From sequence record NC_047890.1: 42,686 nucleotides of DNA, one strand, 5' to 3'. Positions 35,715-42,686 of the stretch are shown here, one piece after another. Source of the stretch: Escherichia phage PGT2. The notes under the pieces are model-generated. The model made no database searches, was not told the DNA's origin, and saw only the letters and a program-made list of their open reading frames with translations. Numbering within the stretch: the stretch's first letter is position 1; each line of letters begins with the position of its first letter. The position numbers and the translations under genes were made by a program.

Positions 35715-35743
35715 GGTGGGCTTCGGCCCACCTCTATTTTATT
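35715..35743 (+). terminator. Rho-independent terminator between the gp16-like gene and the tail fiber gene
   Basis: Perfect 7-bp stem ggtgggc / gcccacc with loop ttcg, then tctattttatt. Confidence 0.6.
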
Positions 35744-35753
35744 GGAGATTTTG

Positions 35754-38516
35754 ATGGCTATTACGTTTTATGCTACCAACAACTTCACTGGTGATGGTAC
35801 TACCGTAAACTGGAATATTAACTTCGCAGACGGTTATATCGACATCACCACCGTGAAGGCGCGGTATCTGGATAATACCGGGAGCTACGTTGACATCGCT
35901 ATTTCAAGCGTGGCAGGAAACGTAGTAACCATTTCCCCGGCTGTGGCGGACGGTCAGGAGTTCCAAATCTATCGTGATACAGAGAAGCGGTTCCCGCTGG
36001 TGGACTTCTCTGACGGTGCAATCCTCAACGAGACTAACCTTGACACGCTGGCTACTCAAGCTGTGATGGTGTCTGCTGAGGCATTCGACCAGTCTAACAA
36101 CGGTGTGCGTATCGCAGGTGATTCCTTGGTTGTTGCACAGGGTATCGACGCCAAGGCACAGGAAGCTCTGGACAACTCCGAGGCTGCTGTAGCTACAGCG
36201 AACGGTATCGACGGTAAAGCGCAGACGGCATTGAATACCGCCGCCGCCGCTGTCGCCACGGCTAATGCTGCCACATCTACTGCTGCTGGTGCTGTATCTA
36301 CGGCCAACACCGCACTGTCTACTGCCCACGATGCCGCCGATGACGCAGCTACCGCTATCACTACCGCTAACGGCGCTGTGATTACGGCCAATGCTGCAAC
36401 CACTACGGCCAACGCCGCTAGTGCTGCCGCCTCTGCTGCAACGACTACTGCGAACAGTGCTGCAAACGACGCTGCTACTGCTGTGTCTACTGCGGGTACG
36501 GCCTTGTCTACTGCGAACACCGCATCTACCAACGCCTCTACCGCTGTGTCCACGGCTAACGGCGCTAAGGCTACTGCTGAGGGTATCGAGGCTAAAGCGG
36601 ATTCTGCTTTGGCAGCCTCTGCTACCGCTGTGTCCACAGCTAACTCAGCCGAGGCTACGGCCAACGCTATCGACGGTAAGGCTACGGACGCATTAGACAC
36701 TGCCGACTCCGCTGTGGCTACGGCTAACGCTGCTGTTTCTACGGCTAACTCTGCTACTGCTACGGCTAATGCTGCCTCTTCTACTGCGAGTTCGGCTGCC
36801 TCTGACGCCAGTACCGCCTTGAGCACAGCTAATGCTATTGACGCAAAGGCACAGACTGCTTTGGATAATACCACGGCTCTGGATGCGGCCACCATGAAGA
36901 AAGCCGCCAACTTATCTGATATTGCGGATAAGGCGGCTGCATGGCTTAACGTCCGTCCTATTGGCTCCACGCCATTGGCAGGCGACCCGGTAGGGGATTA
37001 CGATGCTGTTACTAAGCGTTGGGTAGAGAACCTGATTAACACAGGTACTGTCGGTCCAACCATGAACGGGGTGATGAACTTCGGCGTCGGTGACTTCCAT
37101 CTCCGGGATAGCCGCGCGTACATCCAGCCTTATGAGGTTGTCTCTGACGGTCAGTTACTGAACCGCGCTGACTGGCCTGAACTTTGGGCCTACGCCCAAA
37201 TGCTGTCGCCTATAACGGATGCAGCTTGGTTGGCAGACCCTCTCAAGCGCGGCGCTTACTCTACCGGAAACGGAACCACTACCTTCCGAGTACCGGATAG
37301 GAACGGTGTTCAGTCAGGCTCTGTAAGGGCGCTTTTTGGGCGTGGTGACGGTGGGAACTCTTCTATCGGCAGTACCATCATGGAGTCCTTCGTACCGAAT
37401 ATCACGGCTACGTTAAATATGCACGGTGCTGGTCCCGCATCAGAACCTGCCGCTGGTACTAACGTGGCAGGATTTGGTGGTGCCTTGGTTGCTACGGGAG
37501 AGGCTCTCCCGAGATACCTGCGTGGGGTTACTCTGTTATCTGCTGGTGGTAACTCCTATGGTGGAGCTACCTTCGATGCCTCCCGTTCCAGTGCTGCTTA
37601 TGGTCGTGGTGGTCTGACTACGGATGAGGTTCTGCCGCGTAACTTCACTGGTGTATGGGTAATTCGTGCATCTGGCGGCTTCGTAGCGGCTAATACGCAG
37701 TGGCAGGTTATAAACCAAGATGCGACTAGGCCCGGTAACGGTACTGCCGTCTTAGGTGGTAATATTGTATCTGAGTACCGCGTTGGTGGTGCCTTGGAGG
37801 GTACAGCAAACTTCCGTATGGCGGGTACTATCGATGGTTCGTATGGCGCGCGCATTGCTGTTTATAATGCCACATCTTTAAATGGCGCCAGCTTCGATTT
37901 TACAGAGCACGGGAACATAGAGACTCCCCTTGGTAGGGCTATTGTTATAGGCAACTATGGTATAGGTTCGCAAGCAGATGCTATACCTACTTCGAGGGAT
38001 AACGCATTTATCTCTAACGCTGATAGTAATAGTTCTTGGTCTGCTTCTAACGGGGGTGGCTTTCAAATTACATATGCAGCTAACCGTATCGTCCAGTTCT
38101 GGGTAAGTCAAGGTGGTACTACGGCTTATTTCCGTGCTAATAGCACAGACAGTAACCCCCAACGACCGAAGTCTGCATCTCCTTGGGTCACACTCCAGAA
38201 TGCTGGTACTTCGGACGCTAATGTAAAAACCGTCCTCGGTGACTTAGACTTATCTATACCGTTGAGTAATATCAACGCACTGGAGTTTAAGAAATTCCGC
38301 TACAACAAGGATGGTGAGGATGGCCCGGTTCGACGGGGCATTATCGCGCAGCAGGCGCAGAATGTGGACCCGGAGTACGTACATTCTGCGGATAAGTCCG
38401 GGGTTATGACTCTTGATAGTAACCCGCTGCTGTTGGATGCTCTAGCTGCTGTCAAAGCACTATCTGCTAAAGTGGCCGCTCTGGAAGAGCGTATTGATGA
38501 ACTAACTTCTCAGTAA
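35754..38516 (+). CDS. Tail fiber protein: T7 gp17-like N-terminal adaptor, Ala/Thr/Ser-rich repeat shaft, C-terminal intramolecular chaperone domain
   Basis: N-terminus LVDFSDGAILNETNLDTLATQAVMVSAEA parallels T7 gp17 [29 protein letters not shown]; C-terminus GIIAQQAQ...LAAVKALSAKVAALEERIDELT is chaperone-like; ORF track start 35742 is a TTG. Confidence 0.8.
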   Translation: MAITFYATNNFTGDGTTVNWNINFADGYIDITTVKARYLDNTGSYVDIAISSVAGNVVTISPAVADGQEFQIYRDTEKRFPLVDFSDGAILNETNLDTLATQAVMVSAEAFDQSNNGVRIAGDSLVVAQGIDAKAQEALDNSEAAVATANGIDGKAQTALNTAAAAVATANAATSTAAGAVSTANTALSTAHDAADDAATAITTANGAVITANAATTTANAASAAASAATTTANSAANDAATAVSTAGTALSTANTASTNASTAVSTANGAKATAEGIEAKADSALAASATAVSTANSAEATANAIDGKATDALDTADSAVATANAAVSTANSATATANAASSTASSAASDASTALSTANAIDAKAQTALDNTTALDAATMKKAANLSDIADKAAAWLNVRPIGSTPLAGDPVGDYDAVTKRWVENLINTGTVGPTMNGVMNFGVGDFHLRDSRAYIQPYEVVSDGQLLNRADWPELWAYAQMLSPITDAAWLADPLKRGAYSTGNGTTTFRVPDRNGVQSGSVRALFGRGDGGNSSIGSTIMESFVPNITATLNMHGAGPASEPAAGTNVAGFGGALVATGEALPRYLRGVTLLSAGGNSYGGATFDASRSSAAYGRGGLTTDEVLPRNFTGVWVIRASGGFVAANTQWQVINQDATRPGNGTAVLGGNIVSEYRVGGALEGTANFRMAGTIDGSYGARIAVYNATSLNGASFDFTEHGNIETPLGRAIVIGNYGIGSQADAIPTSRDNAFISNADSNSSWSASNGGGFQITYAANRIVQFWVSQGGTTAYFRANSTDSNPQRPKSASPWVTLQNAGTSDANVKTVLGDLDLSIPLSNINALEFKKFRYNKDGEDGPVRRGIIAQQAQNVDPEYVHSADKSGVMTLDSNPLLLDALAAVKALSAKVAALEERIDELTSQ
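36100..36900. repeat. Imperfect tandem codon repeats (STAN/ATAN units) inside the tail fiber gene
   Basis: About 16 copies of nCyACnGCnAAy (encoding x-T-A-N) at roughly 7-, 11- and 14-residue spacing. Confidence 0.7.
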
Positions 38517-41245: not shown

Positions 41246-41694
41246 ATCTGACCGCAGCGGAGAAGTTAGTTCGACATTTTGAGGGTCTGAAGTTGGAATC
41301 GTACCTGTGTCCTGCTGGTATATGGACTATCGGGTACGGGCAGACCAAGGGTATTAAGAAAGGCATGGTGTGGACCAAGGCTCAGGCCGAGGCAGATATG
41401 TCTGCCACTGTCCGGCGCTTTGCCGAAGAAGTACGTCAACTGGTCCGCAAGGATACGACCGACGCTGAACTGAGCGCATTCACATCTCTGGCCTATAACA
41501 TCGGTACTCCGAACTTTAAGACGTCCTCTGCTCTGCGTTGGCATAATGCCCGTGAGTCCGCGTCCAAGGTATGTGCTGGTATCCGTATGTGGAACAAGGC
41601 CACCGTCAATGGCAAGAAGATTATCCTGAAAGGTCTGGTACGTCGCCGAGAGGCTGAATGCTCCGTATATACAACTGGAGACTTTAATGAATAA
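41242..41694 (+). CDS. Endolysin, phage lysozyme family (GH24 / T4-lysozyme-like)
   Basis: Motif EGLKLESYLCPAGIWTIGYGQT (Glu-8aa-Cys-5aa-Thr arrangement); GTG start with SD ggagg at 6-nt spacing; no N-terminal hydrophobic segment. Confidence 0.75.
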   Translation: MNLTAAEKLVRHFEGLKLESYLCPAGIWTIGYGQTKGIKKGMVWTKAQAEADMSATVRRFAEEVRQLVRKDTTDAELSAFTSLAYNIGTPNFKTSSALRWHNARESASKVCAGIRMWNKATVNGKKIILKGLVRRREAECSVYTTGDFNE

Positions 41695-41857
41695 ATTTAA
41701 GCAATATCTGGGTGCCGCATGGGATTTCACCAAGGAACATGGTGTTACTATCCTGCGTGGTGTGGCTGTCCTCCTTGTAGGTCGTAAGGTTGGTCGCGTT
41801 GCCAACCAGTCCGCCGATGTACTTGATACGGTCATCAAAGGGACTAAGAAGAATTAA
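41687..41857 (+). CDS. Small protein (56 aa) with one short hydrophobic segment; possible lysis accessory protein
   Basis: ATG overlaps the endolysin stop; translation MNKFKQYLGAAWDFTKEHGVTILRGVAVLLVGRKVGRVANQSADVLDTVIKGTKKN; below the 60-aa ORF cutoff. Confidence 0.3.
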   Translation: MNKFKQYLGAAWDFTKEHGVTILRGVAVLLVGRKVGRVANQSADVLDTVIKGTKKN

Positions 41858-42426: not shown

Positions 42427-42686
42427 TCCAACACAAATGAGGTCGCGTTTCCCCCGTAGGCCCGGCCTTCTGGATGGCTAAATGGCTGGATGGATGGATG
42501 GCTGGACGGCTAGACGTTTAGACGGCTAAATGGCCAAATGACCGTAAAAAGGGCCGTGGGCACTGATAGGGTCAATCGGGCTGTAAGCCACGCCAACCGG
42601 GGTTTCCGCACATTACTTTATAAGAGAGCTTGTAAGGTGTCTGGCGGCGATCCGTCTACGACGGGAGAAGGAAAGAGACGTGGGGT
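42427..42686. repeat. Right direct terminal repeat (DTR), 260 bp
   Basis: Exact copy of 1-260. Confidence 0.9.

Follow-up and report, generated by a model that had tools for sequence, protein, structure and literature searches.

What becomes of the C-terminal end of the tail fiber of Escherichia phage PGT2, and which part of this fiber selects the host? Both questions are raised by a single gene in sequence record NC_047890.1, whose 42,686 nucleotides are called the window below. An initial annotation had proposed that the last ~80 residues of the fiber (38250-38516) resemble the self-cleaving chaperone of endosialidase-type tail spikes, and that the region before them (36950-38250) is the receptor-binding, host-range part. 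Our analysis leads to a related reading, to which we assign a probability of roughly 0.85: residues 820-920 (38211-38513) are a C-terminal Peptidase S74 intramolecular chaperone, released by self-cleavage, and most of this chaperone lies in a cassette that is swapped relative to phage phiKT. Feature coordinates are given in Table 1.

The plus-strand sequence 38250-38516 translates to ...RRGIIAQQAQNVDPEYVHSADKSGVMTLDSNPLLLDALAAVKALSAKVAALEERIDELTSQ followed by the stop codon, which is the C-terminal end of the fiber open reading frame (ORF). A hidden Markov model search for the Peptidase S74/intramolecular chaperone family was positive: within Pfam-A, the protein matches PF13884 (Peptidase_S74, “Chaperone of endosialidase”) with an E-value of 6.7e-9 and 36.4 bits, relative to a gathering score of 22. 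Positions 1-57 of the 58 in the Pfam model are covered, corresponding to nucleotides 38211-38381. The chaperone resemblance is therefore borne out by PF13884, but the extent is not: the domain comprises 101 residues from 38211 onward, and position 38250 is already 39 nucleotides (13 codons) past the predicted Thr-Ser cleavage site, so that a domain starting there would lack the Ser/Lys dyad. These are the last 101 of the 920 residues of a protein that begins with a T7-type fiber N-terminal domain. The length is typical, since the chaperones of homologues range from 95 to 152 residues (median, 110), and PF13884 is present in 27 of 29 close homologues according to precomputed Pfam annotation. 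Altogether, the fiber C-terminus is an ordinary member of a well-known self-cleaving chaperone family, and the current understanding of that family is unchanged by it. The result falls within known ground because default Pfam thresholds detect the domain and because the related fibers LtfA and LtfB of phage DT57C were reported in 2016 to carry pfam13884 domains whose cleavage sites can be predicted (PMC4728585).

The start of the domain (T-S-D-A-N-V-K) aligns column by column with Ser1264/Lys1269 of T5 pb1 and with the Ser/Lys pair of the K1F endosialidase. When DT57C LtfA and phiKT gp24 are aligned together with these two proteins, both the Ser and the Lys five residues after it (Lys(+5)) are invariant. 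Among 73 homologues pooled from two database searches, the nucleophile column holds Ser in 70 and Cys in 3, and Lys(+5) occurs in 72; in addition, Lys(+5) and the Gly of an RRG-IAQ motif are invariant in a 52-sequence alignment (A4) that includes T5 and K1F. In T5, the bond cut is Thr1263-Ser1264, Lys1269 activates the Ser, and the substitution Ser1264Ala blocks auto-proteolysis (PMC4690869). The dyad of the PGT2 fiber thus aligns with that of members cleaved in experiments, in agreement with the chaperone reading proposed at the outset. As a side observation, the three homologues with Cys for Ser (including P0021/P0023, which are T5-like phage fibers, e.g., “Stokescottia”) all keep Lys(+5), and two of them read CDERLK; judging from these residues, the self-cleaving site may also exist in a Cys-Lys form.

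A third residue is expected to take part in catalysis. In T5, an Arg of the neighboring chain about 14 residues before the Ser (Arg1250) senses correct folding and forms the oxyanion hole (PMC4690869). This position is Arg in T5, K1F, and phiKT, and it is Lys806 in the PGT2 fiber. Lys is the usual residue among the 23 homologues that share the same pre-cleavage tip module (W at -9), occurring in 19 of them, with Arg in one. Such a preference for Lys or Arg at -14 suggests, at the level of the alignment, that a basic function is conserved there. The exchange of Lys for Arg at the sensor position poses a small, testable mechanistic question.

To describe the fold, we used an AlphaFold2 monomer model of residues 797-920, computed from alignment A4 with no templates (mean predicted local distance difference test score [pLDDT], 90.1; predicted template modeling score, 0.71). 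The model shows the intramolecular chaperone (IMC) fold, in which a C-terminal helix of ~30 residues comes after a small alpha/beta unit. In structure comparison, it scored 9.6 against the MyRF ICA domain (7dc3), 6.6 against T5 pb1 with its chaperone (4uw8), 6.5 against the K1F endoNF chaperone (3gw6), and 6.3 against the GA-1 neck appendage chaperone (3gud), relative to 4.3 for the next hit, which is unrelated. The predicted fold therefore matches solved chaperones. When the last 124 residues were used as a single-sequence query against PDB chain sequences, they matched only DT57C LtfA and one other fiber; a profile search was needed to reach 3gw6, 4uw8, 7dc3, and 3gud, and the hits to the T5 and K1F structures are partly circular, given that the search profile contained T5 and K1F sequences.

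These results also bear on a simpler explanation, namely that the C-terminus is a generic coiled-coil trimerization tag whose likeness to a chaperone arises from its helical, low-complexity composition. The last ~30 residues do form a single long amphipathic helix, and numerous unrelated coiled coils turn up in profile searches, with weak E-values. Nevertheless, the PF13884 match, the conservation of the dyad in alignment A4, and the structure matches effectively refute this explanation, and we give it next to no weight.

Taken as an S74 chaperone, the domain would be expected to work like those of T5 pb1 and endoNF, as follows. The C-terminal helices of three chains would form a coiled coil, set the chains in register, and template the folding of the intertwined distal fiber. 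Once the trimer has folded, Lys825 would activate Ser820, and the basic residue of the neighboring chain (Lys806, at -14) would complete the site. Ser820 would then cut the Thr819-Ser820 bond, after which the 10.9-kDa chaperone would depart and a mature fiber of ~82.4 kDa would stay on the virion. The masses computed for the full-length fiber, the predicted mature fiber, and the chaperone are 93.3, 82.4, and 10.9 kDa, respectively.

Several points weigh against this reading. This fiber has Lys where Arg is canonical at -14, and it lacks the long beta-hairpin “tentacles” seen in T5 and K1F. Alignment A4, from which the model was built, included T5 and K1F sequences, even though the modeling was template-free. 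In the stretch preceding the cleavage site, the pLDDT is below 50 at model residues 355-389 and ~62-72 at residues 390-443; because confidence here is low to moderate, a triple-beta-helix substrate is not verifiable. Furthermore, cleavage is something we infer for this fiber and for its closest relatives alike, and the cryo-electron microscopy entry of DT57C (8HQZ), sought for the processing of LtfA, models the LtfA N-terminus only. An S74 chaperone by descent could accordingly be imagined that is no longer cleaved and is kept as a terminal knob or trimerization foldon. The Lys at -14 would fit this alternative, as would the low model confidence upstream of the cleavage site and the short IMC (101 residues), in which the 30-50-residue insertion of T5 and K1F is absent and their long hairpins are reduced, in the model, to two 3-residue strands. 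The loss of the tentacles does not exclude membership in the family, however, because long tentacles are absent from MyRF and GA-1 as well. On balance, we consider retention of an uncleaved domain improbable and favor a self-cleaving chaperone.

The second question is where host specificity resides. Over most of its length, the window is ~95% identical to phiKT (genus Ermolevavirus, Autographiviridae), and this comparison delimits the cassette. Within the fiber gene, nucleotide identity to phiKT is at least 86% up to ~37200, except for a 14-amino-acid indel at 36701-36800; it drops to 40-65% at ~37300-38465, and from 38465 it returns to 88-100%, continuing at 97-100% into the downstream genes. 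At the protein level, the proximal fiber is more than 95% identical to that of phiKT, whereas the distal ~280 residues and the chaperone constitute a different allele from phiKT and LtfA, with ~35% identity over the last 380 residues. The replaced cassette is therefore ~1.2 kb long (about 37250-38465) and takes in the distal part of the mature fiber and almost the entire chaperone, ending on the right (~38465) within the terminal helix of the chaperone. The exchange of a receptor-recognition domain between PGT2 and phiKT was already pointed out in the genome announcement (PMC5773715).

The host ranges of the two phages are opposite: PGT2 plates on E. coli 7s and not on 4s, and phiKT does the reverse (PMC5773715). 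Infection by phiKT strictly requires O-antigen, and phiKT has one fiber gene only. In DT57C LtfA, the determinant of host specificity was placed within the divergent C-terminal part (PMC4728585), and the mapped LtfA specificity site is 82% identical to the phiKT fiber. From these comparisons, 37251-38210 is likely the receptor-binding, host-range region, and the mature part of the cassette most likely binds O-antigen and sets the host range. Of the stretch proposed initially, the distal part (~37250-38210) is thus supported, being swapped relative to phiKT in the sole fiber gene of phages with opposite host ranges. The left part, 36950 to ~37250, is an unlikely specificity determinant because phiKT and many unrelated fibers share it in conserved form; it belongs to the collar-like module (36882-37250), almost unchanged in phiKT, LtfA/LtfB, and many other fibers, which probably serves, to judge by its conservation, as a structural joint and recombination anchor.

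A different possibility is that host range is set by other regions that differ from phiKT, and that the fiber swap is neutral in this respect. Nine low-homology regions distinguish PGT2 from phiKT (PMC5773715), and the role of the fiber is predicted from comparison of the two phages. However, resistance to phiKT maps to loss of O-antigen, there is a single fiber gene, and exchange of the homologous LtfA segment between DT57C and DT571/2 switched host specificity in experiment. Moreover, E. coli 4s is a host of both phiKT and DT57C, whose versions of this segment are about 80-90% identical. A determinant outside the fiber is thus unlikely, and the swapped distal fiber remains our preferred candidate. 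The best deposited-phage match to 37302-38513 is the putative fiber of phage LAMP (MG673519), with 54% identity; LAMP needs the 4s O-antigen, yet E. coli 4s is reportedly not infected by PGT2. Fiber similarity at the 54% level therefore does not predict specificity.

The distal part is itself a mosaic. Residues ~545-725 resemble two homologues (P0003/P0004), and residues ~725-819 form a tip module that is found together with the chaperone in P0001, P0002, P0005-7, and others; P0002, which carries the unit of tip and chaperone, is a common E. coli prophage fiber. The tip module follows the pattern ...NGGGFQ..Y..NR..QFW.SQGG..AYFRAN...PK....PW.T.Q..GT/SD (the slash marks the predicted cut), after which comes the short chaperone. 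For the distal 380 residues, the best full-length match in any database searched is 50-55% identical. We therefore raise, as a tentative and somewhat doubtful extension, the idea that the last 190-200 residues could be a portable cassette of a tip plus its matched chaperone, moving as a unit among podovirus fibers, T5-like side fibers, and E. coli prophage fibers, and that, with Lys as the inter-subunit sensor, it could constitute a distinct catalytic sub-type of S74. The travel of the chaperone with the tip as one cassette and the Lys-for-Arg sensor position are points of minor interest.

The closest characterized relatives are DT57C LtfA/LtfB and phiKT gp24 (PMC4728585; PDB 8HQZ, N-terminus only), and DT57C, phiKT, and PGT2 come from the same horse-gut phage community. 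Residues 317-923 match LtfA 459-1074 with an E-value of 3e-137. LtfA/LtfB, phiKT gp24, and the PGT2 fiber share the collar-like module, and all end in a pfam13884 domain for which a cleavage site is predicted; the variable loops differ from those of LtfA, as expected for another specificity. The sequence leading up to the predicted cut is ...PKSASPWVTLQNAGT/SD in PGT2, ...GGAIALQGT/SG in LtfA, and ...TRFASAIYATAFTQN/SD in phiKT.

The better-studied members of the family are more distant. The T5 pb1 chaperone has 133 residues, compared with 101 here, and the identity is ~12-19%; PGT2 has little or nothing of its long beta-hairpin tentacle, Arg1250 corresponds to Lys806, and the pb1 “bullet” domain has no detectable sequence similarity to the mature domain that precedes the chaperone here. 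The chaperone of the K1F endosialidase (endoNF, PDB 3GW6) is ~50% longer than that of PGT2, has tentacles, and carries Arg at -14. The protein that it serves is a sialidase tailspike; in the PGT2 fiber, neither Pfam nor structure comparison found an enzymatic domain. For the same reason, namely that the fiber has no such Pfam or structural match, we rejected an enzymatic tailspike (sialidase or depolymerase). The MyRF ICA domain (PDB 7DC3) is a eukaryotic homologue of the phage chaperone in an entirely different biological setting: MyRF is a eukaryotic transcription factor, and cleavage frees its DNA-binding fragment.

Table 1. Features of the PGT2 tail-fiber gene (window coordinates)
Feature	Position	Strand	Remarks
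Tail-fiber gene	35754-38516	+	920 residues plus stop; residues numbered from the ATG at 35754
T7-type tail-attachment domain, N-terminal	35754-36146	+	Pfam PF03906 Phage_T7_tail, residues 5-135 in TTG numbering
Alanine-rich rod	36147-36880	+	near-identical to phiKT apart from the 14-residue indel
Collar-like conserved module	36882-37250	+	NLSD-ADKAAAWLNVRPIGSTPLAGDPV...FRVPDRNG; common to phiKT, T5-like LtfA/LtfB, and many other fibers
Divergent distal part of the mature fiber	37251-38210	+	nucleotide identity to phiKT 0.4-0.7; mosaic
Lys806, position -14 from Ser	38169-38171	+	in place of the folding-sensor Arg of T5 (Arg1250) and K1F
Predicted scissile bond Thr819-Ser820	38208-38213	+	T5 Thr1263-Ser1264 and the corresponding Ser of K1F occupy the same alignment columns
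Ser820, predicted nucleophile	38211-38213	+	residue 824 in TTG numbering
Lys825, predicted general base of the Ser-Lys dyad (Ser+5)	38226-38228	+	column alignment with T5 and K1F
Intramolecular chaperone/Peptidase S74 domain	38211-38513	+	101 residues, 10.9 kDa; small alpha/beta part, then ~30-residue C-terminal helix

The longest reading of the fiber ORF is 35742-38516 on the plus strand, giving 924 residues from a TTG at 35742. The most likely start is nevertheless the ATG at 35754, favored over this TTG because a GGAG ribosome-binding site lies 6 nucleotides upstream and because the phiKT homologue is annotated from MAITF. At 35715-35741, a hairpin resembling a terminator (GGTGGGCTTCGGCCCACC, then a T-rich run) precedes the GGAG site and the ATG; it stands between the gene of a 1400-residue internal virion protein and the fiber gene. 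In PHROGs, the protein is assigned to tail-fiber families with E-values down to 4e-244, and an NCBIfam scan of the fiber protein gave zero matches. The N-terminal PF03906 match has an E-value of 9.2e-12 and 45.4 bits (cut-off, 25.2), and the solved tail-fiber N-terminal domains 8e4g and 8dsp match weakly (E-value, 0.06).

The alanine-rich rod is probably a coiled coil. Its insertion relative to phiKT comprises 14 residues (DTADSAVATANAAV) at 36701-36800, where nucleotide identity drops, and is consistent with slippage or recombination among A/T/S/N-rich repeats. An antisense ORF of 304 residues, also alanine-rich (36056-36970, minus strand), mirrors the rod; it most likely arises from composition rather than being a gene.

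The practical value of these results is modest. They mark the predicted end of the mature fiber (Thr819) for expression or engineering: expression constructs should keep the C-terminal 101 residues for folding, and these residues would be expected to be missing from the product. In host-range swaps among phiKT-like and T5-like fibers, the distal domain should travel with its own chaperone, as it did in the natural exchange.

Elsewhere in the window, an exact direct terminal repeat of 260 bp (1-260 and 42427-42686) bounds the 42,686-bp sequence. Between endolysin-like and holin-like genes lies a plus-strand ORF of 56 residues (41687-41857), 55 of which are identical to those of phiKT gp28; according to a preprint (bioRxiv 10.1101/515445), gp28 is a cationic peptide that substitutes for a spanin by disrupting the outer membrane.
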